Source: a virus. From it: 64,000 bases of DNA. The notes under the pieces were generated by a model, which saw nothing but the letters and a program-made list of their open reading frames with translations, searched no databases and was not told the origin of the DNA. The DNA lies in the IMG/VR virus record IMGVR_UViG_3300013093_000001, positions 32,001 through 96,000 of that record. One strand, written 5' to 3'. Shown here piece after piece: positions 22,669 through 45,559 of the stretch. Positions within the stretch are counted from its first letter, which is position 1, and the number at the start of each line of letters is the position of its first letter. The position numbers were made by a program, and so were the translations under genes.

Positions 22669-23870
22669 CTTTCCTCCTGTCGGGTCTGACCTCGTGTCAG
22701 ACCTCGTGTCGCGGCAAGGTAGTGAGCCTTGCCGGGACGAACTTTACGCTGGCGTGTCTGGGCCAAACATAGAGCGCAAGTAATTGAGCTCTTCTTTTTT
22801 GAGCTCACTGACATAGCGCAACTCGCCGCAGTGTTCGCAACTATGCGGGTGGTCATTGCCACCGTCGCATGAGCCACACACCCAATCGTCATACGTCAAT
22901 CTACTGCTACCTGCCTCTCTTGGTCACATTGAACTTGCCAGCCTTCAAGCGGTCTACTAATTCTCCCAATGCCGCCTCAAAACCGTCCGCGAAGGCGCTC
23001 GCTTCGTTTTGGTCCAGGTTTTTTCGTCTTTGCACAGCCACATGGGAGAGTGTTCCAGTTGGTCACGGACCCCGGCGACTGCTTCTTGACACCACTCCTC
23101 AACCGCGTGCTCGTCAAACTCCATTGTTGCCTTCCTATAAATTGGTCCTGGCCTGTGCCAATACTCGCGTCCCGGTAAGGTAATAAGCCTTACCGGGACT
23201 GTACTAATAATTAGTACGCTTCACCACACCGGCAACCACAGTTACGACGTTATCGGTTCTCCGCGTTGTTCGCCGCGTGCATTGTCCCAGGTATACATCA
23301 TGACATCGAGTGCATTAATGAACCTGACGTACATCTCCGATCCTGTCGGAAGGTAGCGCGGTATAGTTGCGCGTTGATCCCGACCGGTTACGGTTTCCGT
23401 CAAATGCACGTCCACTTGTATGCCGTCGTAGTCAATGCTGACCCTGATCGTCACGACCTAGACTCCCGCTGCATTATACGAATTTCGTCACGGATAACTG
23501 GGTGCCAAAAACTGTTAATTTCCGTTCCTGGTGTCCAATTTTGACGTGCCCACGACCGAAATTCTGCTTCTTCCTCCGGGGTCAAGTCACGGAAAATGCT
23601 CTCAAACTGACCCGACTTGCTGTTGCGGATCATTAAATTCCCCTCCGCATAGTCAAAACATGCGCTGCATGAGCTAAATTAATCCAAGCGTCAGCAAGTT
23701 GTATCTGACAATTGACTGTCAGTCTCTGACCTAGCGGACCATTCTCCACCGCAGTGAGTATTTTTTCTGCTTTCCGCAGGTACTCAACGGTTTCCATTCC
23801 TCCTCCAATCACCTTGGCCGGTTGCCAAGGACAGCGCCTGGGCGGGGCACTGAACCCCACCCAGGCTTCC

Positions 23871-24149
23871 TCAATCTTTGTAAATCTTGGACCCCAATGC
23901 TTCTTCGGTCGCAATGACCAAATTCTGCATTGTAGTCAACTCCTGCTCCGTGGTTTCCGCCGCCATTGGCATCATCTCAACCCGGTACTCGACAATTTCG
24001 TCAAAACCAGCTTCTAGGTGGTCGTCAACGATTTTGGCAGCAGTAGCCGCTGTCATGCCGGGGTTATTCTCTCGCAGTTGCTGGATAAGTTCGCTGCGAC
24101 TGCCTCGGTAAACTCGGCTCTGGCCTTCCGGCCTCTTGCCGTCAGTCAT
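23871..24149 (-). CDS. Hypothetical protein
   Basis: Coupled to the upstream ORF; ends at a repeat element. Confidence 0.5.
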   Translation of the reverse strand: MTDGKRPEGQSRVYRGSRSELIQQLRENNPGMTAATAAKIVDDHLEAGFDEIVEYRVEMMPMAAETTEQELTTMQNLVIATEEALGSKIYKD

Positions 24150-24612
24150 TTTGGCCGTCAACGTCGATATACAGCGTCCTGCTTGCACCCGGTCCTGTTT
24201 CAACGGTAATAGAAGCGTGGTCACCGTCAAAAACGATTTCAGCACTCCTGACTGCTTCCAACGACCGCTGCTTCACCGCCGCATACTTTGCGTCATGCGC
24301 CGCAAGACTCGCCGCCAAAGGACTTCTGTCTGTCAGGAATCCTGGGACTCGTTCTGACTGCAACCACTTGACCAAACCACTGACAAATTCTCGTGGTAAG
24401 GAAACCGTTGCTTCTGGCGCCTGCTCTACCATTGTGCCAAGCAGCGCATGGGGCCGGTTATTGACGACGGCAAGCATGACATCCAATGCCGGGTTAAGCT
24501 GCTCCAGCGGTAACTCCACGTCCCAGTCCAGACGGTCGAATGCCTGATCGGCTAGTTCGACAGCCCTATTTCGCACGGACTGCAACACGTCAGCAGTATT
24601 AGTATCTGCCAT
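24142..24612 (-). CDS. Hypothetical protein
   Basis: ATG after the element SD. Confidence 0.6.
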   Translation of the reverse strand: MADTNTADVLQSVRNRAVELADQAFDRLDWDVELPLEQLNPALDVMLAVVNNRPHALLGTMVEQAPEATVSLPREFVSGLVKWLQSERVPGFLTDRSPLAASLAAHDAKYAAVKQRSLEAVRSAEIVFDGDHASITVETGPGASRTLYIDVDGQND

Positions 24613-24698
24613 GTTTAACTTCTCCTCTAATCTAGTGCAGGTCGGCTCTTTGCCGACCTCGTACCGGGTGCCGGTACGACCCGACACCCGGCCTCTTT

Positions 24699-25256
24699 TT
24701 ACGCTACAGCCTCAACGCGGTGGGTGTAAAAACACCCATTCTTCCCGCAGTCCACTTCCTGCTGCACAAGCGACCACATTGCGTCCCACACGCCGAATAG
24801 CAAATCATAATCGGACGGACGACGACCCAAACCGAAATCGTCTTCCGGCTTCATAAACATTGCTATGATCTCGCGTAGCGCCGCTGTCACAATGTCCTTC
24901 GCTGCGTCACACCAAACGAAATTCACGTCTGCCGGGTCGAAGCCCCGGTACCACGACCTCGGTCCCGGCGCTGGCTCTAAACCAGCGTTGGACCGCTCAA
25001 TTTGAGCGGCCCTGTACGCCTTCGTGTCGTGGCAGTCGCAGTAATTCCTGTCAGACGCGACAATCTCATCACTGGCAAGTAACTGCCAAATACTGAGATG
25101 GACACCGGCAAGCAACTCGCTGTCACTGGTCCTGCTGTGCAGGTCCGTGGCATACAAGTCCACGACCTCACGCAAAGCATCCTTCAGGATATCCGTGGCA
25201 TCTTCACACCACAGATAGTCGTCTGACTTTTTGTCGTCTTGGTACTCCCAAGCCAT
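24699..25256 (-). CDS. Hypothetical protein with internal duplication
   Basis: WCEDATDILKDALRE..SDSELLAGV and WCDAAKDIVTAALRE..SDYDLLFGV. Confidence 0.6.
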   Translation of the reverse strand: MAWEYQDDKKSDDYLWCEDATDILKDALREVVDLYATDLHSRTSDSELLAGVHLSIWQLLASDEIVASDRNYCDCHDTKAYRAAQIERSNAGLEPAPGPRSWYRGFDPADVNFVWCDAAKDIVTAALREIIAMFMKPEDDFGLGRRPSDYDLLFGVWDAMWSLVQQEVDCGKNGCFYTHRVEAVA

Positions 25257-25338
25257 ACTTTTCTCCTCCACTATGGGAACCGGCCTTTGCCAGTCCCTCG
25301 TACCCCGGCCGGATTTGACACCGACCGGGGCTGACCTA

Positions 25339-25803
25339 CTACCTACCCTGCGGGAACTCTTCCTGAATCAAAGCGGTGATAAACGCTTTGTGGTCAGCCA
25401 GGGCTTTATTCAGCGCAACGATCACGCCATACACCGCTTGTCGCTCTCGCCAGTCCTGCATCTGCTCCTCGTAGTATTGTCCAGCGGTGACCGTGGAAGC
25501 AGGCAAACGGAACTGTTTGTCCTCACTAAGCGAGTTTAGTATCGCGTTAGGGTCGTCCGGCTTCTGGGGTTGCGGTTCGTTGCCAACAACAGGAGAAAAA
25601 CCCCAGTATTGTGCTTCCAGATGATCGATCAGACCTGTCAGAAATTGCTGCGTTATCGGGAAGCCGTCTTCTCCTGCTGGCTGATCATCCGTCAACACAA
25701 CGTCGGCAGCCTGCTTCAGCGCTAGCTTCAACGTGCTGCCAGGTACTTCCAAGACGTAATGATCACACGCCTCGTCAATCCGACGCTGCAATTCTGTTGT
25801 CAT
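25339..25803 (-). CDS. Hypothetical protein
   Basis: Exactly fills the space between two elements. Confidence 0.6.
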   Translation of the reverse strand: MTTELQRRIDEACDHYVLEVPGSTLKLALKQAADVVLTDDQPAGEDGFPITQQFLTGLIDHLEAQYWGFSPVVGNEPQPQKPDDPNAILNSLSEDKQFRLPASTVTAGQYYEEQMQDWRERQAVYGVIVALNKALADHKAFITALIQEEFPQGR

Positions 25804-25878
25804 CTTTCCTCCAATCTGACCCGACCCTTTGCCGGGTTCGTACCCCGGTCAGGCTCGACCCTGACCGGGGCTGGGCAG

Positions 25879-26736
25879 CTAGCTGACCTTCCTGGTCGGC
25901 GCTGCTCGCTTAGCTGGCGCTTTCTTAGGCGCAGCCTTCTTAGCTGGTGTCTTACCAGCCGGATGCCGCTTGACGGACGCTTCCAGCTGCGCCATCAAGT
26001 CGGACACGTCGTCGTCGCGCTGGTCCAGATCAACGACGCTGGTCAACACGCCACCCTTAGCTTTCGTGTCAATCAACGCCGCGACCTGCGCGGTGTAGGT
26101 GTCAACGAAGTTGGCGGGACTAAAGTCCTCAATCATGCTGTCAACGACTGCGTGCGCCATTTCCAGCATTTTGGGTGACTCAATGGTCCCGTTTAAATGC
26201 TGCAAACCATTAGCGTCACGGATTTCGTCCAGCCAAATCAGGGTGTGCATGACCAACACGTTGCCAAGGACGCGGATGACAGCCATTTGCTGTCGTGTTC
26301 GCAACACAAACTTTGCGACCGCAACAACATCTGACTCCACCATGACCCGACGCAACAGCGCGTAACCTTGAGAGCTGTTGTCTGTGGGTTCCAAAAAGTA
26401 ACTGGACTCCCACATAATCGGGTCAATCTCGTCACTGTGACAAAACTGGACCACCTCAATGGCCGACAACTTATTGGCTTCCTGCAACTGCGCCAGGTCG
26501 TCATCGGTAATAACGACAATCTTGTCGTCATCAACCAGCTTGCCTTTAATGACTTCGTCAGACCGTGGGTTGACGCCACACTTCTTACACACGCGGGGCT
26601 GACCAATCGCACCCTCGCAACCTGCATGGAACAGGTTAAACGAGATGTCATGGCTGTCCGTTGCCTTGTAGAGTTTGACACCCACATTCACTAAACCGAA
26701 GTTCAGTGACGTGTTTTTCACTGATCTCATACCCAT
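25879..26736 (-). CDS. ku: Ku-like DNA end-binding protein
   Basis: LNFGLVNVGVKLYKAT, YFLEP..YALLR and DLMAQLEASV, plus a Lys/Ala-rich tail. Confidence 0.92.
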   Translation of the reverse strand: MGMRSVKNTSLNFGLVNVGVKLYKATDSHDISFNLFHAGCEGAIGQPRVCKKCGVNPRSDEVIKGKLVDDDKIVVITDDDLAQLQEANKLSAIEVVQFCHSDEIDPIMWESSYFLEPTDNSSQGYALLRRVMVESDVVAVAKFVLRTRQQMAVIRVLGNVLVMHTLIWLDEIRDANGLQHLNGTIESPKMLEMAHAVVDSMIEDFSPANFVDTYTAQVAALIDTKAKGGVLTSVVDLDQRDDDVSDLMAQLEASVKRHPAGKTPAKKAAPKKAPAKRAAPTRKVS

Positions 26737-26776
26737 GTTTTCCTCCTCCACGGCGACCCTTTGCCACCGCTTATTT

Positions 26777-26805
26777 ATTTTAGCCAGACAACTGGCTACT
26801 CACCA
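26777..26805 (-). promoter_or_regulatory. Promoter TGGTGA-N17-TAAAAT upstream of ku
   Basis: Followed by hairpin GCGGTGGC-AAAGG-GTCGCCGT and SD GGAGGAGG. Confidence 0.6.
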
Positions 26806-27135
26806 CCCGGTGGTGGCGAAATCTATGACCCCTCCAGGTAAAATCTCCTCAATACAGGGGAGGTGTAACGACCCGTCAGGTTCGCTACACCCCCTCCCTA
26901 CTCAGGGTGGTAAATGCCGTGCATTTCGTCTAGGCATTTGTCGCAGTGCTTGACGTAAGACGGCTTTCCGTCAACTAGCCAAAACTCTGTACCATAAATC
27001 TGGTTTGGCAATATCTGCCTCACGCATGTACTACAGGCATGGCTCTTCCTTGCTCGGCGGTACCGGGTCTCACCTAGCTGTAATTCATCAATCCAGTCAA
27101 CTTCTTCTGGATCATCCCTGTAGCCAGCGTAGATG

Positions 27136-27525
27136 CTAGCCACAATGCCACCGCAGCATTTGAGAATAGTTGACGCAACCCTCTGCGTAACCCTCGGTAT
27201 ACATTTCCGCTCTCTGCTGGTCGTATTGCCGCTCCGACTCCTTGTACTGCGCGAGCAGTTCAGGCGACAGACGTGACTCGTCAACAGTCAACAAAACTCG
27301 CTGACCATTGCACACAGAGCAAAGCGCATCATAGACACCCGACTTGTAATCCTGCCAAAAGTCGGGGTCTTGATCGTACATTTCATCCTGGGTCATACCG
27401 CCCTCCCAGCAATCATGCACACCGCGACCTTCACAACGCCAGCAGACCTCGTACTTGTCGGGCAAGTTGACGCTCGTCGGTCCGTCTTCGCTGTTTGCGT
27501 CGGTACCAAGCATCTGGTACTTCAT
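27136..27525 (-). CDS. Hypothetical Zn-finger protein
   Basis: CWRCEGRG..Y.SG.YD..CSVCNG. Confidence 0.65.
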   Translation of the reverse strand: MKYQMLGTDANSEDGPTSVNLPDKYEVCWRCEGRGVHDCWEGGMTQDEMYDQDPDFWQDYKSGVYDALCSVCNGQRVLLTVDESRLSPELLAQYKESERQYDQQRAEMYTEGYAEGCVNYSQMLRWHCG

Positions 27526-27796
27526 GCTTCTCTCCTCCTAACCGGGCTGGCTTGTGCCAGCCTCGCACCCTGGCCGGGTTCGACCCCGGCCAGGGCTCGT
27601 CAGGCCAATCCCCTGACGTACAGGTAACCCTTCACCCGTTCGGCCAGCTCGTAAGCGGAATCGATGATATCCAATTCGTTGGACGAATTGTCATACCGCT
27701 CGTAAAACTGGTTCAGCGCAGCCACGACCGCCTTTGCGTCGTATTCTTGCCGCTCCTGCATAATCGGCAATGACTGCGGCGACCACCAGTGGCCGC

Positions 27797-28003
27797 TCAC
27801 ATACCCGGCTTGAAGTCGAAGTACACACGCGGGTTGTGCGTGAACTCCATGACACCTTCGACACGGTCCGACTTCCGTCGGACCATGACGTATGGAGCAG
27901 AGAAGCCAATGACTTCAAATTCTGCCTGTAACTGCTCGGTGTCCCACGTCTGTCCCTCTGGCTTGCGACCAGAGTCGTAGTTGTGGATTTCAATACCTGA
28001 CAT
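27797..28003 (-). CDS. Small hypothetical protein
   Basis: WDTEQL..EFEVIGFSAPY..VRRKSD..FTHNPRVYF conserved phage motif. Confidence 0.65.
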   Translation of the reverse strand: MSGIEIHNYDSGRKPEGQTWDTEQLQAEFEVIGFSAPYVMVRRKSDRVEGVMEFTHNPRVYFDFKPGM

Positions 28004-28084
28004 TTTTCCTCCTCCACTTGGGTCGGCCTGGTGCCGACCTCGCGCCGTGGTTGAGTTCGACCCCAACCACGGCAATTCTTAGTC

Positions 28085-28435: not shown

Positions 28436-29091
28436 GTTTCCTCCTCCTTGTGGCTGGTTGTCAGCCCCGTGCGCTGGCCGGGTAATGAACCCGGCCAGGG
28501 CTGTGTCATAGCCGCGACAGGACACCGTTAATTAGTTCTGCCACCGCATCCAACGTCACGCCACCAGACAATTTTAGCTTCTCAGCAACATAATCAGCGC
28601 TGACCGGACTGTCGAAGGTGTATGCCCCGCAGGACTTGACTGCAACGAATACCTGCCTGTGGTTGACATAACTGATCGTATTGCTGCCACCGACGTCGCA
28701 AGGCGATGCAAACAAAATCCGCAGCGCAGTAGCCTGTCTATCCGTCCAAAGCAGAGCGACCGACCCGTAGTAATTCATATCGAACACCACGGCGTCGAAT
28801 GTACCGTCGCTGTTGACAACCTGATTGTATTCGTCAAGCGTGTACTGCCGCTCACCCATCACTCTGGTCCGTTCGCCCAAAAATCCAGCAACTCAAGAAT
28901 TCCGGTGAGGGCTTCGGCAATAGCTATCTGCGCGTGGTCCTGGCTAGTTGGACGCAAATCCGCACGCCCGTTTTTAGCCCAACCGATCCGCTCTCGCGCA
29001 TTTTTCAGGTGTTGATTCACTTTTCCTCCAATCTGGTCCGGCATTTGCCGGACTCGTACCCCGGCCAGGTTCGACCCTGGCCGGGGCGTGT

Positions 29092-29553: not shown

Positions 29554-29625
29554 CTCTCCTCCTAACTGGGCTGGCCTCTTGCCAGCCTCGTACCCCGGCC
29601 AGGTTCGACCCTGACCGGGGCTATT

Positions 29626-30024: not shown

Positions 30025-30105
30025 AGTTTTTTCCTCCTCCTAACTGGTCTGGCTCATGCCAGACTCGTACCCGGTACAGGTTCGACCCTGTACCGGGCGC
30101 TACCG

Positions 30106-30345: not shown

Positions 30346-30421
30346 TCTTTCCTCCAATCTGACCCGACCTCTTGCCGGGTTCGCGTCCTAGCCAGGTTCG
30401 ACCCTGACTAGGACTCCTTTA

Positions 30422-30667: not shown

Positions 30668-30740
30668 TTTCCTCCTTCTAACTGGCTGACTCTTTGTCAG
30701 CCTCGTACCCCGGCCAGTTCTGACACTGGCCGGGGCCACC

Positions 30741-31271
30741 TCACGCCGCAAATGCGTCGTACCACACCTTCCGCTTGTCACCACAGCAAGGGCCATAAAA
30801 CCACCCACGCCTATTAACTCTAAGCCGGTGCGCTGTCACGTTACCGTGACAGTAGAAGCAATGCGGGACCAGCTTACCGTCAGCTATCGTAAACTCTAGC
30901 TGCTGCCTCGGCTTATTGTTCCAGCCAACAAAGAACCTAAAAATTCTCAGGTGACTGGTATGACGCATCAAATGCAATGACCTTGCTAGCCTCGCTAACC
31001 GCAGCAGGGCTAAACCACCACCTGCCACGGGCAGTAACGCTGCCACAATGACACAAGCATCAAACACGTTCCAAAAAGACCGGAAGAAAAGCCTGGTAAA
31101 CGCGACACGAAGAGCCAGTTCACACGCAAAGAACAGCAAAACAGCGTTGTCCAGCCGCTCAAGTAATTCAGCGTTCGTGTCATCTACAAGGCTCCACGCC
31201 ACCAGACCAAGGTTGGTTAGAATTGCGACCATCACTACCCGGTCTAGCGGGGAAGACCTGTTGTGCGACAT
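30741..31271 (-). CDS. Ion_trans-like voltage-sensor (S1-S4) protein without a pore domain
   Basis: FFACELALR (S2), WNVFD (S3) and LRLARLARSLHLMR (S4). Confidence 0.8.
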   Translation of the reverse strand: MSHNRSSPLDRVVMVAILTNLGLVAWSLVDDTNAELLERLDNAVLLFFACELALRVAFTRLFFRSFWNVFDACVIVAALLPVAGGGLALLRLARLARSLHLMRHTSHLRIFRFFVGWNNKPRQQLEFTIADGKLVPHCFYCHGNVTAHRLRVNRRGWFYGPCCGDKRKVWYDAFAA

Positions 31272-31327
31272 TTCTCATAAACCTCCTCCTAACATCCCCG
31301 ACCCTGTGTCGGGGAAATCTGTGTGGG

Positions 31328-31444
31328 GAGGCGGCGGCGCAGGTACTGCGCCCGAGCCATGTAACCGGGCAAGGCAATCCTTGCTTCCATTGCCACCAAA
31401 AATGAATGAAAACGGTGGGATGGTGAGTTTAACGCCGCCGCCTC
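31328..31444 (-). ncRNA. Putative structured three-way-junction RNA, copy A
   Basis: Closing stem, TTAAACTCA, stem, AAGCAAGGA, stem, TACCTG; covaries with copies B and C; strand inferred. Confidence 0.6.
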
Positions 31445-31477
31445 AAGCCTCAAAAAGTTTGTGTGGAAAGGTGGTGG

Positions 31478-31598
31478 GGGGGCGGCGGCGCAGGTACTAC
31501 ACGCCCCGTAGTAAAAGGGCGCTTATTGGTAGTCCTTACTTTCCAATTTCCCACCAGCAAGGAACGAGAAATTGGTTGAGCTTAACGCCGCCGCCTCC
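31478..31598 (-). ncRNA. Putative structured three-way-junction RNA, copy B
   Basis: TTAAGCTCA..AAAGTAAGGA..TACCTG core with different stems. Confidence 0.6.
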
Positions 31599-31601
31599 AG
31601 C

Positions 31602-31844: not shown

Positions 31845-31917
31845 CTTTCCTCCTCTCCTAAGCTGGCCTTATGCCAGCTTCGTGTCCAGCACGACTTCGA
31901 CATCGTGCTGGACTTCC

Positions 31918-32283: not shown

Positions 32284-32566
32284 CTTTCCTCCTCCTTGTT
32301 CGGGCTATCTGACTGACAGCCGCCGCACTGGGTGGGATTTTGACATCCCACCCAGTCACCTTACTACGAAAACTTCTTACCTGCCTGCAACCACATCATT
32401 GCTATTACGTCGCATAATTCTGTACGACGCTCTGGCGTGACAGGCGGGTGCTTGGGATTCTCCCACCTCGCCATAATCTGCGCCGCGACCAGCAGCGTTA
32501 AGGGTGTGCGAACCGTTTCCCTGTCTGCTGCCGCCTGGTTCGCGAGCTCAGCCGCGTCTGTTTCGC

Positions 32567-32884: not shown

Positions 32885-32959
32885 TTCCTCCTCCAATCTG
32901 GTCCGACCCTTGTCGGACTCGTACCCCAGTCAGCTTCGACACTGACTGGGGCCTGCGTG

Positions 32960-33457: not shown

Positions 33458-33541
33458 GTTTGCTGCTTCCTCCTCACTATGGTCCGACACCCTGCCGGAC
33501 TCGTACCCCGGCTAGCTATGACACTAGCCGGGGCCACCTAA

Positions 33542-34177
33542 CTACCTTCTTTGCGCTGGGTCAACGTAGCGATCTAACAGTCGCCACCCGAAACCCTCAC
33601 ACGCGAAGGGACGGTCACCGATAATTACTAAATCGCCGACCGACAAACTGCGGTTCCCGTCGTCCCTGTATTTCCTACCCCACGCAAACGCAGGGTTGTC
33701 GCGGTTCAGTTCACCAAAAACTTTCCCCAGTAATCGAAACTCTGGTTCAAATTTCCACTGCAACCGCTCCGGTCCGCGCAACGTGGGAATGAAATCAGGC
33801 TCATCCCAACTGACCGCTAAGACGAGCTGGTCGCCTGGGCGGTGACCGTACATAAAACACTCGGTGTTTTGGTTCAAATAGACCCTCACTTGCCGGTGTC
33901 TCTGTACGCAGTCGGGACAAAGATCGTTACCTACAAGATTTTCGGCTTGTAGCCAACCATCAGTTTGCAACCCTTCCTGTATGACCGCGTCCCGGATTTT
34001 CTCATCTTCAGCGTAGCTATCTACACCCCACACGGCGTGACACTCATCGCATTCGATGAATGTCTCCCGTATTTTGTCTGTCAAGTCCAAGGGAAAATTC
34101 TCCCTCACACAGTCGGGTGGTAGATATGCTGTGCTCACGTCGGGCGGGTAACCCCAAAGCGCATCGCCTCGGGTCAT
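33542..34177 (-). CDS. Hypothetical protein
   Basis: C-terminal RSLSVGDLV..FACEGFGW (YodL-like) motif; start uncertain. Confidence 0.6.
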   Translation of the reverse strand: MTRGDALWGYPPDVSTAYLPPDCVRENFPLDLTDKIRETFIECDECHAVWGVDSYAEDEKIRDAVIQEGLQTDGWLQAENLVGNDLCPDCVQRHRQVRVYLNQNTECFMYGHRPGDQLVLAVSWDEPDFIPTLRGPERLQWKFEPEFRLLGKVFGELNRDNPAFAWGRKYRDDGNRSLSVGDLVIIGDRPFACEGFGWRLLDRYVDPAQRR

Positions 34178-34283
34178 TGCCGCCAACCCTCGTCAGCAGT
34201 CATCTTCTATCCTCCTTTACCAAAGTCCGGCTCCTTGCCGGACTCGCACCCGGTACGGTTCTGACACCGTACCGGGCCTGTGT

Positions 34284-34694: not shown

Positions 34695-35087
34695 GCTTCC
34701 TCCTCTAACGGGTCGGCTGTCTGCCGACCTCGTACCCGGTATGGTGTTGAAACCATACCGGGCCTTTTTACCGCGACGTACAGGCAAGGGCACGACAATC
34801 AGCGCAGTAGGTTTTGCCGTAGGCGCTGATGTACGCAGTCAGCAACGTCAACGGATTGTCGCAATAAAAGCAGTGGATTAGCACTGGTGCTCCTCCTTAT
34901 AACCAAAGTGCGACTCAGGCAGCGTCACGGTCAACTCACCGGCAAGAAAAGCTACGGCCTGTTCGCGACTGAGTCGCATCTTTTGGTACTCCCAAATGTC
35001 GCGCTCGTCGTACTCCATTTCCTCCTCCAATCTGGTCAGCTTCTGCCAACCTCGTACCCCGGCCAGGTTCGACCCTGGCCGGGGCTT

Positions 35088-35447: not shown

Positions 35448-35523
35448 GTTTCCTCCTCCTAAACGGGCTGGCTTCTGCCAGCCTCGTGTCCGGTGTGGAT
35501 TCGACCCCACACCGGACCGTATG

Positions 35524-35772: not shown

Positions 35773-35857
35773 TTTCCTCCTCCAATCTGGTCGGCTTTTT
35801 GCCAACCTCGTACCCACGTCAGGTTCGACCCTGACGTGGGCGCTCAGCGCTAGCTGA

Positions 35858-36298
35858 TCATTGGCGTGCAGCGTAGAACAATTCCACGCATGTGACTTCA
35901 CGGACCGGCTCTACCGTCAGGTAGGCCCAATCGACGAGGTACGCCAATGCGAAGCGCTCTGCGTCCCGCTGCGCCAATTCGCGCGTAGCGGCCTTGCCAT
36001 ACGCAATCAGTTCTCCGTCATCAACGGTCCAAGCCTTTAGCCCTAAGTCCGGTTTGCCGGACAGATGACGAACGTACCAGGACCAGGGCCGGGGCCGCGG
36101 TCCAGGCGACAGCTGCTCAAAAAGCAGATCGGTTGCTGCCGCATCAGCGCTAGGCTGGTCATCGTCGCCTGGTGGGAACACTTGCGCGAGCAATTCAAAA
36201 GCAGTCATGTACTGATCGCCAACTTGACCCCCCGTAACCTCAGCGGTTTCGGGCGTCATGGTTGACCATTCCCACGGTACTTCTATCGTTATTTCCAT
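35858..36298 (-). CDS. Hypothetical protein
   Basis: Between elements. Confidence 0.55.
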   Translation of the reverse strand: MEITIEVPWEWSTMTPETAEVTGGQVGDQYMTAFELLAQVFPPGDDDQPSADAAATDLLFEQLSPGPRPRPWSWYVRHLSGKPDLGLKAWTVDDGELIAYGKAATRELAQRDAERFALAYLVDWAYLTVEPVREVTCVELFYAARQ

Positions 36299-36381
36299 GG
36301 TTGGTACTTTCTCCCTCTAACTGGCTCGGCTTTTTGCCAAGCTCGCGTCCTGGTGTGGTTCGACCCACACCAGGACTCCTT

Positions 36382-36630: not shown

Positions 36631-36704
36631 TTTTCCTCCTCCAAGGTGGGCATGGCTATTTGCCACGCCTCGTGCCCCGGCCAGGTTCGACCCTGGCCGG
36701 GGCT

Positions 36705-36900
36705 AGGTGCGACGCAGGTACAGTACGCCAGAGGATAGCTGGCGGTCACTCGGGCCGCATCGCAACATGGCTATGCGCGACCTGAGTGGACTGTCCTTGC
36801 ATTCCCGCTCCAAAGGGAGCAATCTTACCGCCGAGAAATTGGGCACTCGGCCTCTGCGGCAAGCAAAAACCTTCGGGGGGTGAGTTTAACGTCGCTTCCT
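36705..36900 (-). ncRNA. Putative structured three-way-junction RNA, copy C (extended arms)
   Basis: GCGACG-TTAAACTCA..AATGCAAGGA-CAGT..ACTG-TACCTG-CGTCGC; fills a slot between two double-hairpin elements. Confidence 0.65.
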
Positions 36901-36964
36901 CTTTTGTGGTCGGCGTTCTTGCCGACCTCGTGTCCCAGGCAGGTTCGACCCTACCTGGGACTGC

Positions 36965-37213: not shown

Positions 37214-37312
37214 CTCTTCCTCCTTCTAGCTGGCTATTTGCCAACTCGTACCCCGGCCAGGTTCGACCCTGGCCGGGGCTATATTCAGTTGTTATTCAGT
37301 TGTGGGTTAGTG

Positions 37313-37693: not shown

Positions 37694-37795
37694 CTCTCTT
37701 ATTTCCTCCATTGTTGTGTGGCATTCGCCACGCATCCGGCCTTGTGCCGGATGTCTGTACCCGGTGCGGTTATGACGCCACACCGGGCCTTGTTG

Positions 37796-38251
37796 CTAAG
37801 CTTCAACCGACTGCGACTTCAACGCAGCAATCTGCTGCTGCAACCGCTCGATCTCAGCCACCGGGTCACCCATCATCTGGGTAAACGCCTGCTCAACCGC
37901 AGTCACAATCCGGTCGGCAGGGTTCAAGCGATAAATCAGGCCTTTTTCATAACCCGACTCACCCTTAATTCCGGCGTAAAGGTTGGTTCCTGCGCGGTTC
38001 CGCTTGACCACGGCCACTCGCCCGTCGTCCATGCGGTACTCACCCGGCTCTGTCACGCGCTCTGCGGCGGGTTTACCACCGGCAAAGGGCGCTTCTAGGG
38101 CCTTCGCAATCAAGGCGCTGGCCTGTTCAGCTGTCATTCCAACAGCTAAAAACTGGTCAATCGCCGACCGCAAGCCGTCTGGTACTTCTCGCTTGACCAG
38201 CAGGTCACCGAGAAAGCTCAGCTGCTTTTCAGTCGCCATTCTTATCGCCAT
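37796..38251 (-). CDS. Hypothetical protein
   Basis: ATEKQLSFL.DL..AS.LI..L N-terminal motif; true start after the element SD. Confidence 0.65.
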   Translation of the reverse strand: MAIRMATEKQLSFLGDLLVKREVPDGLRSAIDQFLAVGMTAEQASALIAKALEAPFAGGKPAAERVTEPGEYRMDDGRVAVVKRNRAGTNLYAGIKGESGYEKGLIYRLNPADRIVTAVEQAFTQMMGDPVAEIERLQQQIAALKSQSVEA

Positions 38252-38330
38252 GTTTCCTCCTCCATGGGTCCGACCCTGTGCCAGACCTCGTGTCCGGTGC
38301 GGTTTTGACACCGCACCGGACTCCCTAGCA

Positions 38331-38650
38331 ACCCAACATCGCTGTTGGGGGTGGGGCGGTAGGGGTTCCCTACCCACCCCAGTTTGGAGGTTAGAGGAAA
38401 TCACTATTCATTAGACCTGTCGGTGCCACATGCGACCAGCTTCGCGCTGGCCGGGTTTGCACCCTAGCGCCTTGTGTTCACTAGCGGTGCCTCTACGTGC
38501 GCGACCGCTGCTTCACTTTTGCCACCATCGTCCAAGTGCGCGACGGCGGCCACAAAGCACGCAGGCGCAAGGCTGCTCAGCCAGGTTGCGTGGACACCAC
38601 AGATATAGGTGTCCCGTAAAACCCGACCGGCAACTTTGCGCCTAAAACAA
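38331..38650 (-). ncRNA. Putative large structured ncRNA (~320 nt), copy 1
   Basis: Diverged duplicate at 43350-43694 with indels and compensatory changes; no conserved ORF. Confidence 0.7.
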
Positions 38651-39623
38651 GTATACCCAGGGGCCTGAGTGTTGCCTACCCCTAAGCACGACTAATTCTT
38701 TCTAACCCAAACCTGCTGGCGGCTGCCGGAAGGCTTTACCTTCCCCAGCCAGCCTCGTACCCGGTGTGGCTTCGACACCATACCGGGCCTCCTTACTTGT
38801 GCGTCCAGTCCCGGTAAAGCACCGCGAACAGGGTGCAAGCCATAACAATCATGGCCTCAACAGCGGGTGACATCATTTCTCCCGCTGGCTTTTCAGTCCC
38901 AAGCGTTGACGCACCCAGGCCAGACCTGGCGTTTCAGCCGGGGGCACATAATCCTGTGCGGGTTTAATCCCCTGCCAGACGCTCAACCCCATGTTGGGGT
39001 TCATGTATAGCATTTCTATCCTCCTTCTAGGTCGGCCTCGTGCCAACCTCGTGTCCCGCGTGGGTTCGACCCCACGCGGGACCACCACCTACTAGGAATT
39101 CTCCCAATTCCGGTAGCTCTTGTCTCGGCGTAACGCTTTCGCGTTTCGCTTCTTGCGCTGGTCTTGGTGGATACCAGCAGCGCCGGATCGTCGCAATTCA
39201 AGACGGGCTCGCAGTTGCTCCTCGCAGGCGCTCAGGTACTTGTCATCCACCAGTTGCAGATGACGCTTCATTATCATTATTTCCTCCTGTACCGGCTGGC
39301 TCTTTGCCAGCCTCGTACCCCGGCAGGTTCTGACACCCACCGGGGCCTGGGCCTTTATGGTCCTGCTAGAGCAGCACCAAATCTTCAGGCCACGCCTCAT
39401 CTTCACCGCCTGTGTCGAACTGGCCTGGATCCCATTCCAGGACAATGCCAATTCCGTTGGGGCCGTCCACCACCTCAACAACAGTTCCAATCATGGTAGG
39501 TGCACCGCAAGAGCGGACACGATCTCCCGGTTTGAACTTTTTACTCATTCCTCCTCCACTCTGGTCGGCCTCGTACCGACCTCGTACCCGGTATGGCTTC
39601 GACACCATACCGGGCCTCGTCAC

Positions 39624-39893
39624 TCAAGCAAAGTCTCGGTAGCGTTTTTCTGCTTCCACGACCGCTCGCGCGATCTTCGACGGTTCCAACCACTCCTGGT
39701 GACCGGACTTAGCTTCCGGCTGCTTCCAGTACCACGCCACGACCTCACTGTGCGTGTCTTCTGCTTTCCACCAGAACAAGCACGTTTCGTAGGTCAAGTC
39801 AGGTAACTCGACCGTACTCACCAAGACCGAACCAACGCTCTCCAGCGTGACGACTTCTCGTTCGTGGTAACGGGCGTCTTCTTCGTAGTCCAT
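39624..39893 (-). CDS. Small hypothetical protein
   Basis: VSTVEL...YETCLF motif; between elements. Confidence 0.6.
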   Translation of the reverse strand: MDYEEDARYHEREVVTLESVGSVLVSTVELPDLTYETCLFWWKAEDTHSEVVAWYWKQPEAKSGHQEWLEPSKIARAVVEAEKRYRDFA

Positions 39894-39969
39894 TTTCTCC
39901 TCCTAATCAGCTGACCGTTTGCCAGCTTTGCGCCCTGTGTGGTTTCGACACCACACAGGGCCATCTCAC

Positions 39970-40281
39970 TCAGTTGCGCCACCACGTTTCCCAGTCGTAC
40001 ATCTCACTGTCGCTCAGGAACCCGTCGCCATCCGGGTCGGTACCAAACCGGGCGAACTCAATGCGCTTCGCCGCTAGGGCGAACTGCAAGTTCTTCGACT
40101 CTCCAGCCGGGACCAAAAACGTCACATCCCACACGGAGAAATCTGTACCGGAACCGGTGTCGTAGCCGTGGTGATCGGCAATGATCTGCTTCAGGAACAC
40201 CCATTGGGGGTTTTCCCGTCCAGCGTCATCGCGCTCCGGGTAGGGCAGGTAAGCCTTGTACCGGTGCATTACTGTTGCCAT
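39970..40281 (-). CDS. Small hypothetical protein
   Basis: Between elements; SD. Confidence 0.55.
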   Translation of the reverse strand: MATVMHRYKAYLPYPERDDAGRENPQWVFLKQIIADHHGYDTGSGTDFSVWDVTFLVPAGESKNLQFALAAKRIEFARFGTDPDGDGFLSDSEMYDWETWWRN

Positions 40282-40359
40282 GTTTTCCTCCTCCAACGTG
40301 GTCCGGCCTTGTGCCGGACCTGCGTGCCCTGGCGGGTTCTGACACCCACCAGGGCTTTT

Positions 40360-40665
40360 CTAGCTGGTTGCCGCCTCAAACTCAGCGTTTAACTCAGCAA
40401 CCTTCTGCTTGACCGTCCCATCCAGCCACGCTTGCGCCAGTTCATCAATTTTCGGTACCCGGTAGGGCCAAATCTCCCTGAACTCGCTCGCCAGCTTGAA
40501 TTGCGCTGTCAAACACTCAGCCGTCATCTCCAACTTGCCGTCAAGTTCTTCTACTATAAACTTGACGAGCTGGGTTTCATTCTGACGGACGGCATCCAAT
40601 TTCCGCCAAGTGTTGAAGACGCGCTCTCGCGCTTTTTCTAATTTGGTCGGTGGACCACCAATCAT
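40360..40665 (-). CDS. Small hypothetical protein
   Basis: Between elements; SD. Confidence 0.55.
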   Translation of the reverse strand: MIGGPPTKLEKARERVFNTWRKLDAVRQNETQLVKFIVEELDGKLEMTAECLTAQFKLASEFREIWPYRVPKIDELAQAWLDGTVKQKVAELNAEFEAATS

Positions 40666-40736
40666 TTTTCCTCCTCCTTATCTAGCCACTAGTGGCTTCG
40701 TACCGGTGCAGGGTTCGACCCCCACACCGGTTCCTT

Positions 40737-41006
40737 TTACTGCGAGAACTGCGCGTGGAGCTCTCGGGCGTACTCGGGTATAGCTGCTTTCCACCATGTC
40801 TCATACCCAAGGTGTTGGGCAATTTGCTGCGCCAAGTGCAGCGCATCTTCCGGCGACAAGAACATGACCGCGTTGCTTCGGTCTGTTTTCGTTCCGGCCA
40901 GGTCAATGACGACCTTCGTCCCGTCTTCCGTGCGGTGTACGTCTCGCCGTAGCGCGACGTAGTGCATGTAGACGGTGAAGGCGCTGCTTTCGTGGTCTTG
41001 TTCCAT
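40737..41006 (-). CDS. Small hypothetical protein
   Basis: Between elements; SD. Confidence 0.55.
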   Translation of the reverse strand: MEQDHESSAFTVYMHYVALRRDVHRTEDGTKVVIDLAGTKTDRSNAVMFLSPEDALHLAQQIAQHLGYETWWKAAIPEYARELHAQFSQ

Positions 41007-41083
41007 TTTTCCTCCTCCAACATGGGTTCGGCTTCTTGCCGGACCTCGCGTCCCGGTCAGGTTCGACGCTGACCGGGACTCCC

Positions 41084-41329
41084 TCACACGACCGTGAAAT
41101 TCCCGGTCTTGGCTTTCACCTTCACGTTCGCGTACCAGCGCCGATCCCGGTAGGGGTCGGGGCCAACCACCACGTCGCTCGGTGTCAGCTCTGCAGCTTT
41201 CACAGTCCCACGGTTGCTGAACGCTGAGGTGTCGGTGAATGCCACCGGCTGCTCAGCCTCAACAGCGTCCTTCAACGCTTTCTTGGACGGGAAGTTACGT
41301 CCTCCTAGCGTGGCGTGGAAGTTGCTCAT
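41084..41329 (-). CDS. Small hypothetical protein
   Basis: FPSKKALKDAV..VVGPDPY.DRRWYANV conserved phage motif. Confidence 0.65.
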   Translation of the reverse strand: MSNFHATLGGRNFPSKKALKDAVEAEQPVAFTDTSAFSNRGTVKAAELTPSDVVVGPDPYRDRRWYANVKVKAKTGNFTVV

Positions 41330-41414
41330 TATTTTTCCTCCTCCAACATGGGTCCGGCCTTGTGCCGGACCCTGCGTGCCCCCGCCAGGTTCGACCCTGA
41401 CGGGGGCTTCTGTC

Positions 41415-41759
41415 CTACTGGACGTATCCGTTGTCAACACACTCCTGGCAGGTAAAAAACCCTGTCTTTAGGTTGTAGAACCCATCCCAGCCGGTGTCCT
41501 TCGCATTACAGGACCAGCAATCCGGGGCTGGCATGATTTCGGGCGCTTCGTCCTTGAATGCGTCCCACTCTTTGGGCGTCACCCCGCTGATGAGAAATTC
41601 TCTCTCATCAACACTCAGGTGTGGGAACGCGTCTTGCACGCACTCTCCCACGCCGCGCTCTCGCGCTTCCAGCCACGCTTCCATCGCGTGGGGTGCAACA
41701 TCAATGTCCATCTGGTTCACGTAACCAGTGATGATCGATGTCTTCTGGACTGTGACCAT
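41415..41759 (-). CDS. Hypothetical protein
   Basis: QDAFPHLS.DEREFLISGVTP.EW conserved phage motif. Confidence 0.65.
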   Translation of the reverse strand: MVTVQKTSIITGYVNQMDIDVAPHAMEAWLEARERGVGECVQDAFPHLSVDEREFLISGVTPKEWDAFKDEAPEIMPAPDCWSCNAKDTGWDGFYNLKTGFFTCQECVDNGYVQ

Positions 41760-41839
41760 TCTTTCCTCCTCCAACTTGGCTCGACCTCATGTCAAGCCTC
41801 GTACCCGGTGGTGGTTCGACCCACCACCGGGCCTTGTGG

Positions 41840-42058
41840 CTAGTGCACCAATTCGTTCGGCATCCAGCCTGGTTGACGGTCTGAGTAGTGTGACTCATCG
41901 TCAACCGCAGTAATCGTCGCTAACTGCATTCCGTCACCTTCGCTTAGCTTGCATATCGAAGCATTCGCGATTCCCTGCTCTTGCATCGCCAGCAAGGTCT
42001 TCAGGTTCCGTGTGGTCAGTTCAACGCGAAGTTCGTTTCCAACTGCGAACACCTTCAT
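41840..42058 (-). CDS. Small hypothetical protein
   Basis: ELTTRNL.TLL..D..HYSDR.PG motif. Confidence 0.6.
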   Translation of the reverse strand: MKVFAVGNELRVELTTRNLKTLLAMQEQGIANASICKLSEGDGMQLATITAVDDESHYSDRQPGWMPNELVH

Positions 42059-42140
42059 TTTTTCCTCCTCCAACTTGGCTTGGCCTCGTGCCAGCCTCGT
42101 ACCCCTGCCAGGTTCGACCCTGACAGGGGCTCCTTCCGCG

Positions 42141-42587
42141 TCAGCGGTAAAAACCATCACAATCGGTGTCATCTAACCCTAATACGTGGACGAATAGCTT
42201 CTCCCCACACATCAGGCATATCTGCTGGCTGTACTCTTCCAACAACTGATTTTCGACTGCCGAAGCCAGCTCTTCCCCAGACAGACCTTGTTCAGTAAAA
42301 CTGCTGAACAACTCGACACAGCGGGGTGCTACCCTCACTGCGTCAATGTGGAAGTCTGCTATCCAGTCCCAGTTCAGTTGTTTATCGTCACCGTGTGCTT
42401 TACTACTCGTTGACCCGGTGTGATACACATAATCCGACCAGCGGATGTATGTACCGGCCATCGGTGTACCAGAGAGTCTGTAGTGACGATCAACGTATGC
42501 CGGTTCGTGTGGCGGTTCTAATACCGTCTCAACGGTAATCAAAACCGACTCAACCGACAGGGCAGTTTGCAGCAACCGTGCGTCCAC
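42141..42587 (-). CDS. Hypothetical protein
   Basis: Between elements; GTG after SD. Confidence 0.5.
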   Translation of the reverse strand: MDARLLQTALSVESVLITVETVLEPPHEPAYVDRHYRLSGTPMAGTYIRWSDYVYHTGSTSSKAHGDDKQLNWDWIADFHIDAVRVAPRCVELFSSFTEQGLSGEELASAVENQLLEEYSQQICLMCGEKLFVHVLGLDDTDCDGFYR

Positions 42588-42912
42588 TGCTGTTTCCTCC
42601 TCCAACTTGGCTCGACCTCATGTCAAGCCTCGTACCCGGTACAGTTTCGAGGCTGTACCGGGCCTGTGCGCTACGCCAACCCGGCGCGGCGCAGTGCGTC
42701 CCGCATCGCGGGGTTGCGGTAGTGCGTACCCCGCACCGGGGCGGGACCGCTCGCCTTCGCAGGCATGGCGGCCGGAGTGGCCTCTGCGGCCACAACCGCG
42801 ACCAGCTTCCGGTTCACGTTGTATGCGTTCACTTTTTTCCTCCTCCAACATGGGCCTGACCTTTTGCCAAGCCTCGTACCCCGGCAGGTTCTGACACCCA
42901 CCGGGGCCTTCG

Positions 42913-43185
42913 TCACACGGCGACGATCTTCAATTCGCCTCGCGTGACCAATCGGTACATCGGGCGACACCCATCATCGGTCCGACACAGGGTATCAATG
43001 GCGCAACGAATGTCATCGACAAGCGTCTCAACTGGGTCATCACCCCTGCGCCAGTTCGGGTAGCGGAACACGTTCTTCATGTCCGCTTCGAACGCAGCAA
43101 TGTAACCAGTGCGTCCAAGAATCTCGTCGGCGTTCCGGGCAAGTGCAACCCAGGCCGCTTCGTCGTAAATCTCCGACATCCTCAT
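42913..43185 (-). CDS. Small hypothetical protein
   Basis: First protein-coding unit of the leftward array. Confidence 0.5.
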   Translation of the reverse strand: MRMSEIYDEAAWVALARNADEILGRTGYIAAFEADMKNVFRYPNWRRGDDPVETLVDDIRCAIDTLCRTDDGCRPMYRLVTRGELKIVAV

Positions 43186-43349
43186 GTGACAGCTCCAATC
43201 TGTCTCTAACTCGGTGGCCTCAACTGAGGTCACCGCCTCCGCTTCGTCAGCGGCAGGATGGTTGGTTGTGCAGCGCGGGGTAAATCTCCCAGCCGCGCTG
43301 CACAACCTCGTGGCCGGTGCGGTTTTGACACCGCACCGGCCTCCAGTAC

Positions 43350-44602: not shown

Positions 44603-44603
44603 C

Positions 44604-44636
44604 GGTGGGGCGCAGGCCAACAACCTGCGCCCCACC
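44604..44636 (+). terminator. Stem-loop after stop codon
   Basis: GGTGGGGCGCAGG / CCTGCGCCCCACC perfect 13-bp stem; no U-tract. Confidence 0.45.
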
Positions 44637-44674
44637 CCCAACAAGCACACACACAGCACACAAAGGAGAGCAAC

Positions 44675-45517: not shown

Positions 45518-45559
45518 GGTACTTGTCAGGCAATACCAACCAAGTAGTAAGGACACAAA

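Follow-up and report, generated by a model that had tools for sequence, protein, structure and literature searches.

The early genes of phage T7 are separated by RNase III processing hairpins (R0.3, R0.5, R1, R1.1 and R1.3). After the cut, the upstream RNA keeps a 3'-terminal hairpin. Bacillus phage SP82 has similar sites. Mitochondrial transcripts are punctuated by tRNAs. In T4-type phages, the promoter-early stem-loop (PeSL) consists of a sigma-70 promoter and a terminator stem-loop of conserved sequence (PMC2839356). The SAS and ESAS repeats of Cluster K mycobacteriophages are of unknown function (PMC3203893), and tandem hammerhead ribozymes are found on either side of single genes of prophage transcripts (PMC3088659).

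The phage described here is uncultured and comes from a lake. Its genome is complete at 113.9 kb, and the window analysed is a stretch of 64,000 nt to which all coordinates refer. The genome carries a PPE gene and its capsid is related to those of Mycobacterium phages, both of which suggest that the host is of the mycobacterial type and probably mycobacterial. About 45 small minus-strand genes, ORFans of unknown function in a single orientation, are divided by elements made of two hairpins.

The locus resembles those of T7 and SP82 in having hairpins repeated between the cistrons of a long early transcript. A T7 site, however, is a single long hairpin that is irregular and contains an internal loop, whereas the element has two short perfect hairpins and an unpaired RCGA; there are ~45 copies here versus ~5-10 sites in T7, and the likely cut would be in single-stranded RNA by an RNase E-type enzyme rather than in a duplex. 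Like PeSLs, the elements are dense repeated modules between the ORFans of a plastic region, and units are lost through recombination between adjacent copies. Unlike PeSLs, they have neither promoter box nor U-tract, their stems vary freely and their G-U pairs are strand-specific. With SAS and ESAS they share mycobacteriophage-type genomes, a repeated SD motif behind an inverted repeat that has a spacer of 4-13 nt, and a single orientation ahead of many non-structural genes. The arms of ESAS are imperfect 17-bp repeats of conserved sequence, whereas the element's arms are perfect, variable and covarying and form two hairpins; no sequence similarity between the element and SAS/ESAS is found.

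Extent of the array

A covariance model (R1), built from 28 hand-picked copies and searched against the whole genome, identifies 43 full-length copies, every one of them on the minus (mRNA-sense) strand, in agreement with an earlier note on this DNA, which had counted about 43 double-hairpin elements separating genes. All but one are matched at E ≤ 4e-5 with 33-80 bits; the exception is a weaker copy at 28446-28503 (24 bits). Forty-two matches lie within 21727-43343, and these, together with two variants added by a hairpin scan (23812-23866 and 32327-32356), stand between the small minus-strand genes of a 21.6-kb array with a mean copy spacing of ~515 bp. The previously given range of 22669-43341 holds 41 of the 43 copies, but the array really runs from 43343 down to 21727, and its final copy (21727-21787) lies beyond the former lower limit. 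The lone full copy outside the array (58381-58441, minus strand) is 15 kb away and precedes a 220-aa gene of phrog_4652, a widespread family without known function. The model finds no copies elsewhere in the 113.9-kb genome, including the remaining 50 kb.

Structure of the element

The order of parts is stop codon, ~7 nt, hairpin 1, R-C-G-A linker, hairpin 2, strong SD and start codon, and this anatomy, as given in the earlier note, holds across copies. Hairpin 1 (~ -24 kcal/mol) follows the stop codon after 2-11 nt (median 7 nt) and is exactly 12 bp long; its loops (n = 42) are GUCGAA (24), GUCAGA (5), GUCAAA (4), GUCAUA (2) and others (7). The linker opens with purine-C (R-C) in 42/42 array copies and reads ACGA in 30 and GCGA in 7. 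Hairpin 2 (6-9 bp, ~ -13 kcal/mol) is formed by YGGC, an A-rich loop and GYC, and its GGCA is invariant in the 28-copy seed alignment and retained in most of the 42 copies. The start codon lies 8-21 nt beyond the match in 37 of 39 copies, the distance from element to SD is fixed, and the SD is unpaired in local folds of element regions. The only likeness to a tRNA acceptor/T-arm is in the length of 12 bp and in the loop UCRA.

The first, most upstream copy (43286-43343) follows leader unit A (see below), has an atypical hairpin 2 and carries a hairpin 1 identical to that of 38262-38323. Hairpin 1 is likewise identical in 42848-42909 and 39288-39348, and hairpin 2 in 42604-42665 and 41773-41834. 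The top-scoring copy is 29563-29623 (80 bits), that at 22678-22740 scores 33 bits, and hairpin 1 equals the consensus in 37222-37281 and 29030-29089. Less usual linkers are found at 41346-41409 (ACGCAGG), 40295-40357 (ACGCA), 39903-39963 (GCAA) and 37728-37790 (ACAGAC, with an extra hairpin ahead of the SD), and less usual loops at 34705-34765 (UUCAAC) and 23139-23201 (CUUAUUA). Hairpin 2 is short and atypical at 40678-40733. At 38727-38790 a longer hairpin takes its place, followed by no gene but by the non-coding leader unit B, which is closed by 38262-38323. The copy at 36902-36963 is without a nearby start codon, and behind the model match at 34219-34279 comes a mini-ORF of 9 codons, the stop of which overlaps the ATG of a 214-aa gene. 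Other model matches in the array are at 41020-41081, 39557-39617, 39024-39084, 36643-36705, 36318-36378, 35783-35843, 35460-35519, 33476-33536, 32895-32954, 31855-31915, 30678-30738, 30356-30416, 30041-30100, 28015-28075, 27538-27598, 25271-25333 and 24634-24694. The variant at 32327-32356 (minus strand) consists of hairpin 1 alone, with 12 bp and the loop GUCAAA; it stands behind a stop codon and has neither RCGA linker nor hairpin 2. The divergent variant at 23812-23866 (minus strand) has a 13-bp hairpin with loop UUCAGUG and linker GCUGU, then hairpin 2 and SD.

Sequence is conserved in the loop GUCGAA, the stem base GYCC/GGRY and the GGCA of hairpin 2, and the pair C5-G37 is invariant. This conservation exceeds the need of end protection and points to a possible specific protein partner.

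Covariation and strand of the fold

Of 795 stem cells, 96.2% are paired compared with 74% in shuffles, and 0 of 500 shuffles reach the observed value; pairing falls to 28-44% with slid partners, and 16 of the 19 base pairs have changed on both sides. The stems thus vary while pairing is kept, as had been claimed from the sequence, and the comparison with shuffles bears the claim out. G-U/U-G pairs number 78 on the minus strand versus 7 A-C/C-A, and paired cells amount to 96.2% on the minus and 87.3% on the plus strand. Because G-U pairs so outnumber A-C pairs, the fold is assigned to the sense strand. The G-U bias noticed earlier is therefore real, and the example given for it, hairpin 2 at 35034-35051 within the copy 35028-35087, is exact. 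Covariation together with this bias makes selection on a single-stranded, mRNA-sense fold well supported.

Such a fold could belong to a so far undescribed class of self-cleaving ribozymes and serve as the tandem hammerheads around single prophage genes do; the genomic niche equals that of clustered hammerheads (PMC3088659), and loop and linker contain conserved unpaired nucleotides. This is extremely improbable, however, as no ribozyme family is matched even at E ≤ 1, the two perfect hairpins offer no internal loops, junction or plausible pseudoknot, and the complementarity of loop and linker is just 3 nt (UCG/CGA) and does not covary. The element is like hammerheads and mitochondrial tRNA punctuation in being structured RNA between cistrons, with gene-by-gene cutting presumed here, but it has neither a ribozyme core nor a tRNA match.

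Promoters, terminators and leader sequences

Hairpin 2 occurs without hairpin 1 at six places. At each of them it lies 6-9 nt past a TANNNT box, for which the background chance is 4.2%, and is followed by an SD and a start codon. These include, on the minus strand, 26750-26770 (6 nt past TAAAAT, ahead of the SD for the Ku gene, which lies within the array), 60627-60649 (8 nt past TACTAT, then SD and ATG), 56351-56369 (7 nt past TAAAGT) and 14057-14075 (9 nt past TAAAAT), and, on the plus strand, 9987-10003 (7 nt past TACCCT). Because it is found alone at this distance after -10 boxes, hairpin 2 is interpreted as a 5'-terminal leader hairpin, which marks it as the predicted first structure of transcripts from ordinary promoters. 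No -10 box is present at any of the 42 array copies.

Leader unit A (43350-43700, minus strand) is ~340 nt long, contains no convincing gene and runs into the first element. It has a promoter-like TG-n-TACGTT box and a hairpin-2-like 5' end. Leader unit B (38331-38678, minus strand) is a diverged, non-coding second copy of unit A (83% mean column identity in a two-sequence alignment) with the promoter-like site TAGGCA-17-TATACT. Neither sigma-70-type promoters (9 found versus 6.8 expected) nor intrinsic terminators (21 versus 19) are enriched in the array, and the copies themselves contain no promoters or terminators.

These data bear on the possibility that the element is a transcriptional signal, in which hairpin 1 would cause pausing or termination with restart or anti-termination at each unit, or in which the hairpin would serve as promoter to a phage polymerase that has escaped recognition. 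Each gene is indeed directly followed by a GC-rich hairpin of great stability, the two 340-nt leader units with their promoter-like sites could load an anti-termination factor, and PeSLs are themselves a stem-loop plus promoter (PMC2839356). Yet hairpin 1 is followed by ACGAG, not by a U-tract, the -10 box is lacking in all array copies, and no sigma factor is matched in the complete genome. There is also no match to a single-subunit RNA polymerase, for which the control search was uninformative. Hairpin promoters were an alternative in the earlier note; those of the N4 kind form on the template strand, and the position of the G-U pairs on the non-template strand speaks against them. A transcriptional role is quite improbable.

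Another explanation is an operator for a trans-acting phage or host RNA-binding protein, which would bind the conserved nucleotides of loop and stem base beside every SD and thereby switch translation or stability of all the units jointly with no cut. T4 RegA, which acts on many early mRNAs, is a model for such a protein. Conservation beyond the need of pairing (GUCGAA in 24/42 copies, C5-G37, GGCA), the constant distance to the SD and the occurrence of hairpin 2 in promoter-proximal leaders elsewhere in the genome argue for an operator. However, no RNA-binding family is found among ~130 phage proteins scanned, most of them ORFans, and an operator leaves unexplained why hairpin 1 hugs the stop codon and why hairpin 2 alone suffices after promoters. 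We consider it possible though unlikely.

Natural variants and distribution

Exactly one unit is missing in two cases among variant strains from other lake metagenomes. A well-supported 298-bp deletion joins 41795 to 42094, ending inside the adjacent copies 41773-41834 and 42072-42132, and the 11 nt shared at the joint are as would be expected from homologous recombination. The second loss joins 39270 to 39542, just behind two copies, on a contig of depth 2.1. A gene replacement has its break 2 nt ahead of the ATG (25805), behind the copy 25813-25873. Gene loss and replacement break at the elements in part: the two unit losses end in or beside neighbouring copies, but further variants break inside genes (27149 to 27519; 36085 to 36162). 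The copies act as homology patches for the loss of single gene units, as a by-product.

Single-unit losses and replacement would also suit a DNA-level cassette junction, at which units are gained, lost or shuffled either through homologous recombination, as with PeSLs, or by an enzyme that is site-specific and acts on the folded single strand (attC- or REP-like), as would the nearly independent evolution of hairpins 1 and 2 (Mantel r 0.13), the identical hairpins in unrelated contexts and the ORFan genes in one orientation. Like integron attC sites, the element conserves structure over sequence, is strand-specific and stands after each promoterless ORFan cassette in one orientation. Unlike them, it forms one unit with the SD leader of the following gene, its stems are perfect without extrahelical bases, and it has no R/L boxes or GTTRRRY core. 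The complete genome contains no integrase or other tyrosine recombinase and no HUH (Y1) transposase, and the attC-like alternative raised earlier is not upheld. The breaks inside genes also count against a junction, and what homology exchange requires is identical sequence; it has no need of compensatory pairing or of G-U pairs confined to one strand. Such a role is decidedly improbable.

No copy of the element is present in Rfam, in 50,697 phage records or in 18 related genomes. Close relatives lack it, including one with 81% capsid identity. Two short metagenome contigs, L271 and L215, carry it between unrelated genes, and these copies also show sense-strand G-U pairs.

A possible role in mRNA processing

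The reading that we favour, at somewhat less than an even chance, is that the element punctuates mRNA in cis, as a putative signal for cutting and end protection. Indirect support comes from the promoter-borne hairpin 2, the promoterless array copies, the purine-C linker and the absence of promoter or terminator enrichment. Mycobacterial RNase E cuts single-stranded RNA directly on the 5' side of a C and weakly prefers a purine at -1 (PMC10641625), a preference that the purine-C start of the linker appears to fit. The full motif RN|CNU is met by the linker only at -1 and +1, and this partial fit, the relatives without the element and the sequence conservation beyond the need of end protection weigh against this reading. 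RNase III and Cas6 are not found in the complete genome. The earlier note's overall interpretation, that processing signals cut a polycistron into monocistronic RNAs, is partly supported.

Under the favoured reading, transcription of the array probably yields a few long polycistronic RNAs, which would start at ordinary promoters at the two leader units (~43.7 and ~38.65 kb) and at the Ku promoter. The unpaired linker, R|CGA, is the putative cut site, most likely for a host RNase E-type endonuclease. Hairpin 1 would protect the upstream cistron at its 3' end, and hairpin 2 would become the 5'-terminal hairpin of the downstream cistron, with the SD unpaired a few bases on. The leader left by the cut would be the one carried by the primary transcripts of the phage, and one long message would be turned into single-gene pieces with protected ends.

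Copies and anatomy of the element

A search of the whole 113,905-bp phage genome with the covariance model R1, which was built from 28 copies, gave 43 full-length minus-strand matches, 42 of them within 21727-43343 and one at 58381-58441; none lies in the rest of the genome beyond the window. Plus-strand matches score much lower and are reverse readings of the palindromic hairpin 1 only. A plain hairpin scan adds a divergent copy (23812-23866) and a copy consisting of hairpin 1 only (32327-32356). The count of about 43 elements in the earlier note is thus borne out, and the stretch that it gave, 22669-43341, is confirmed as an array, except that one more copy lies further down at its lower end, to 21727.

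The anatomy described in the earlier note is also correct. On the minus strand the gaps read stop codon, hairpin 1 (12 bp, GC-rich, 6-nt loop), the linker ACGA(G), hairpin 2, a few bases, the SD sequence GGAGG(AGG) and the start codon. The hairpin 1 stem is always exactly 12 bp, and its loop is GUCGAA in 24 copies, GUCAGA in 5, GUCAAA in 4, GUCAUA in 2 and a singleton in 7. The linker starts with purine-C in 42 of 42 copies (ACGA in 30, GCGA in 7). Hairpin 2 consists of GGC, an A-rich loop and GYC, with a stem of 6-9 bp. Hairpin 1 folds with a mean energy of -24 kcal/mol and hairpin 2 with one of -13 kcal/mol, and the SD is unpaired in local folds. The gap between the stop codon and the first paired base has a median length of 7 nt and measures 2-11 nt in 34 of 40 cases, and the start codon lies 8-21 nt past the R1 match in 37 of 39 cases. 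Two further readings were rejected: a pseudoknot between loop (UCG) and linker (CGA), which would be 3 nt only, sterically remote and without covariation, and a sigma-54 reading of TGGCA in hairpin 2, where the loop length, and hence the GG-to-GC spacing, varies.

A selected fold on the mRNA strand

In the R1 alignment of 42 copies, 96.2% of 795 cells are standard pairs, and hairpin 1 is 98.6% paired. Column shuffles gave 74% (0 of 500 reached the observed value), a control that overstates significance because the copies are paralogues of one genome, while the control in which partners were slid (28-44%) and the count of pair types are independent of kinship. Double-sided changes occur in 16 of 19 pairs, and a single position can show as many as five pair types. 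G-U or U-G pairs number 78 and A-C or C-A pairs 7, and reading the structure on the plus strand would lower pairing to 87%; it is therefore the mRNA (minus) strand whose fold is selected. This bears out the claim of a selected single-stranded fold with G-U pairs on the mRNA strand, and the example cited for it, at 35034-35051, is correct.

The conserved letters in the loop and at the stem base exceed the needs of simple end protection, which suggests a specific partner protein. Among the roughly 130 predicted phage proteins scanned, no RNA-binding or RNA-directed nuclease families were found. That the element is the operator of an RNA-binding regulator is unlikely in our estimate.

Comparison with known systems

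The searches of Rfam and of phage genomes proposed in the earlier note matched no described motif: Rfam gave no match at gathering score anywhere in the window and none at E ≤ 1 within 21000-46000, and BLAST of one element against 50,697 phage records gave no match. The literature searched holds no description of the element, the nearest being PeSL, SAS/ESAS and tandem hammerheads. Models of hammerhead, twister, pistol, hatchet and HDV-like ribozymes had no match at E ≤ 1, and we consider a new class of ribozyme extremely improbable.

A T7-type RNase III site is one hairpin of at least about 20 bp, its cut site usually placed in an internal loop, whereas the element has two perfect, shorter stems and no internal loop. 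The complete phage genome encodes no recognisable RNase III, Cas6, sigma factor, tyrosine recombinase or Y1 transposase. Integron attC sites have an adjacent IntI tyrosine recombinase, an imperfect stem with extrahelical bases and R''/R' cores RYYYAAC / GTTRRRY; the element has perfect stems with the letters GUCGAA, RCGA and GGCA, and PF00589 is absent from the complete genome (the control was positive in 14 of 14 genomes). These differences speak clearly against the attC-like alternative raised in the earlier note. REP/RAYT systems have a Y1 HUH transposase as partner, and PF01797 is absent from the phage genome. The hairpin-promoter alternative is disfavoured as well: an N4-type promoter is a 5-7 bp hairpin with a 3-nt loop on the template strand, used by a virion RNA polymerase, whereas hairpin 1 has 12 bp, a 6-nt loop and G-U pairs on the non-template strand. 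A search for a phage RNA polymerase gave no match, with a control that was equally silent. The SAS/ESAS of Cluster K combine a 13-bp conserved SAS at the start with 17-bp inverted repeats of conserved sequence (PMC3203893), while the arms of the element vary freely.

Hairpin 1 might also be a tRNA mimic, at which tRNA-end enzymes of the host would cut the transcript gene by gene, either RNase Z behind the purine or RNase P at the base on the 5' side. Its fixed 12-bp helix has the length of acceptor plus T stem, and its loop has a UCRA core and a G-C closing pair and is followed by a purine 'discriminator' and CGA. A tRNA-like minihelix has a 7-nt T-loop and an RCCA tail where hairpin 1 has a 6-nt loop and the tail RCGA, and neither ARAGORN nor the Rfam tRNA model gave a match. 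We rate this reading as highly doubtful; if true, a bacterial virus would here do what tRNA punctuation does in mitochondria, and hairpin 2 would cap the message that follows.

Hairpin 2 as a leader

Stems of the hairpin 2 type (YGGC-AAASG-GYC) with SD and start codon, and without hairpin 1, are present at six genome sites. All six lie 6-9 nt downstream of a TANNNT box (TAGTGT, TACCCT, TACTAT, TAAAGT and, twice, TAAAAT), for which the background chance at such a distance is 4.2%. Since transcription usually begins 6-8 nt past the -10 box, RNAs from these sites would start at or just ahead of hairpin 2. The related record G015 also has a leader of this type after a TATAGT box.

A TANNNT box in promoter position is absent from all 42 array copies, and sigma-70-type promoters are not enriched in the array (9 found, 6.8 expected). 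The same holds for intrinsic terminators (21 found, 19 expected), of which none is at an element on the minus strand; an intrinsic terminator is a GC-rich hairpin with a U-tract, whereas in at least 30 copies ACGAG directly follows hairpin 1. A role as a transcriptional signal is distinctly unlikely. Because the array copies are without promoter boxes, a 5' end just upstream of hairpin 2 could arise there only via a predicted cut in the linker, and such a cut would recreate the leader of the primary transcripts.

Several other features were seen in and near the array. Two units of about 340 nt without a convincing gene, 43350-43700 (-) and 38331-38678 (-), are diverged copies of one another (83% mean column identity when aligned). 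Both carry a promoter-like site and a 14-bp G/C hairpin, open with a hairpin-2-like 5' end and finish in an element; hairpin 1 is identical between these two elements. Neither unit matches Rfam. They may be leaders that drive the two halves of the array, possibly as anti-termination or regulatory RNAs. A non-coding leader of about 300 nt, 31296-31601 (-), precedes an ion-channel-like gene (30741-31271) and has a hairpin-2-type stem (31295-31315) at its end. After the element at 34219-34279, a 9-codon mini-ORF, 34180-34206 (-), has a stop that overlaps the ATG (ATGA) of a 214-aa gene (33542-34186), an arrangement that looks like translational coupling via a leader peptide. Long perfect palindromes on both strands at 44600-46050 (stems of 17 bp, 13-15 bp and 10 bp) lie in the gap between the minus-strand array and plus-strand genes, at a turn in GC skew, and may house an origin or a bidirectional terminator, or serve in regulation.

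Recombination at the copies

Contigs from three other lake-water runs were compared with the array. A 298-bp deletion (joint 41795-42094) has both ends within neighbouring copies, with 11 bases in common. A 271-bp deletion (joint 39270-39542) connects equivalent points just behind two copies, with weak support (contig depth 2.1, 46-nt flank), and in a gene replacement the break is 2 nt ahead of an ATG (25805). The earlier note proposed a check for breaks of gene gain and loss at the elements, and these three changes break in or close to them. Two other changes break inside genes: the in-frame loss of nearly a whole gene at 27149-27519, and 76 nt replaced by 43 at 36085-36162. Among the copies, similarity in hairpin 1 goes almost independently of similarity in hairpin 2 (Mantel r 0.13), and identical hairpins are found in unrelated contexts.

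Because variant deletions join neighbouring copies, the two hairpins vary nearly independently and identical hairpins recur in unrelated contexts, the copies act as recombination patches, as do the PeSL elements of T4-type phages (PMC2839356). Units are lost or gained in both by recombination between neighbouring copies, here at joints 41795-42094 and 39270-39542, whereas each PeSL contains a sigma-70-type promoter and 0 of 42 copies here have TANNNT in place. A recombination junction as the primary role is improbable, however, and we rank recombination as a consequence rather than the purpose of the element, since it leaves the compensatory pairing and the strand-specific G-U pairs unexplained.

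Distribution

The array is absent from 15 IMG/VR relatives reached via the capsid, among them one of 113.8 kb with 81% capsid identity, where a hairpin scan confirmed its absence, and from the cultured relatives Omega, Bipper and prophiT37-1. The sole match in Bipper (20 bits) is coding sequence, and a 24-bit match in G015 is a loose relative only. Loose DNA patterns run over viral contigs gave chance matches only, none passing R1, and a pattern scan of genome contigs gave two matches, both chance. A scan of metagenome contigs gave 116 stretches, and among the 80 inspected the real carriers were two short contigs from the same sample: three copies lie on L271 and one and a half on L215. The genes that the element separates on these two contigs bear no relation to the window's genes, and its G-U pairs again fall on the sense strand. 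The element is therefore rare, and it is not private to one genome. Assemblies break at copies, which may hide other carriers.

Phage, host and gene content

The virus record, of which the window is a part, is complete (113,905 bp, with terminal repeats) and encodes a tape-measure protein with a transglycosylase domain, a prohead protease, an HK97-type capsid, a large terminase and a portal protein. Capsid identity to Mycobacterium phages is 47-55%; the relatives compared are named phages of clusters J and Y, and M. abscessus prophages. A PPE-family gene at 19848-20858 (+) matches PF00823 (E 3e-47) and has the PPE-SVP C-terminal region. PPE proteins are, to our knowledge, confined to mycobacteria, and a mycobacterial-type host is likely because the phage carries this gene. 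Such a gene is unusual cargo for a phage, and the source is lake water. All five runs with this phage DNA are lake-water metagenome DNA, with no RNA run among those listed.

The array genes are ORFans except for Ku, a DUF3846 protein and the ion-channel-like protein. Ku (25879-26751, -) has a promoter and a leader hairpin of its own, and elsewhere the phage encodes an ATP-dependent DNA ligase; together they form an end-joining pair of the kind known from mycobacteriophages Omega and Corndog. The 220-aa protein encoded after the lone copy was rejected as a specific nuclease partner: it has no Pfam match, belongs to PHROG 4652 (function unknown) and has more than 3,700 homologues in element-free genomes; Microbacterium genomes are among those with close homologues. 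Directly upstream of this gene and the lone copy, GGY-NN pentamers form a long run at 58520-59150 (-). The phage also carries a 7-deazaguanine (queuosine-type) pathway, with two QueC-like genes, GTP cyclohydrolase I, PTPS/QueD and a radical-SAM QueE-like gene, part of which was placed at 10764-12235 (-). Several glycosyltransferases and a C5 cytosine methylase (49209-50240) are encoded as well, and the phage probably modifies its own DNA.

Proposed role of the element

The best-supported mechanism, which we favour tentatively, is an mRNA punctuation module: hairpin 1 would protect the 3' end of the upstream cistron, the linker would be cut, and hairpin 2 would become the 5' leader hairpin of the next cistron. 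The linker is the sole constantly unpaired stretch between two stable hairpins, and all copies have R|C there. At more than 85% of mapped sites, mycobacterial RNase E cleaves single-stranded RNA directly 5' of cytidine; its motif is RN|CNU, with a weak purine preference at -1 (PMC10641625). Judged by the linker sequence, RNase E is the leading candidate nuclease, with a motif fit limited to -1 and +1 and a host that we ourselves infer.

If cut as proposed, the element would be a compact natural insulator that turns one long transcript into about 45 single-gene messages, every one of them with a protected 3' end and an identical 5' leader. The array would then give the C-specific mycobacterial RNase E a defined natural substrate in many repeats, and such cutting would explain how a phage can swap unknown genes without disturbing their expression.
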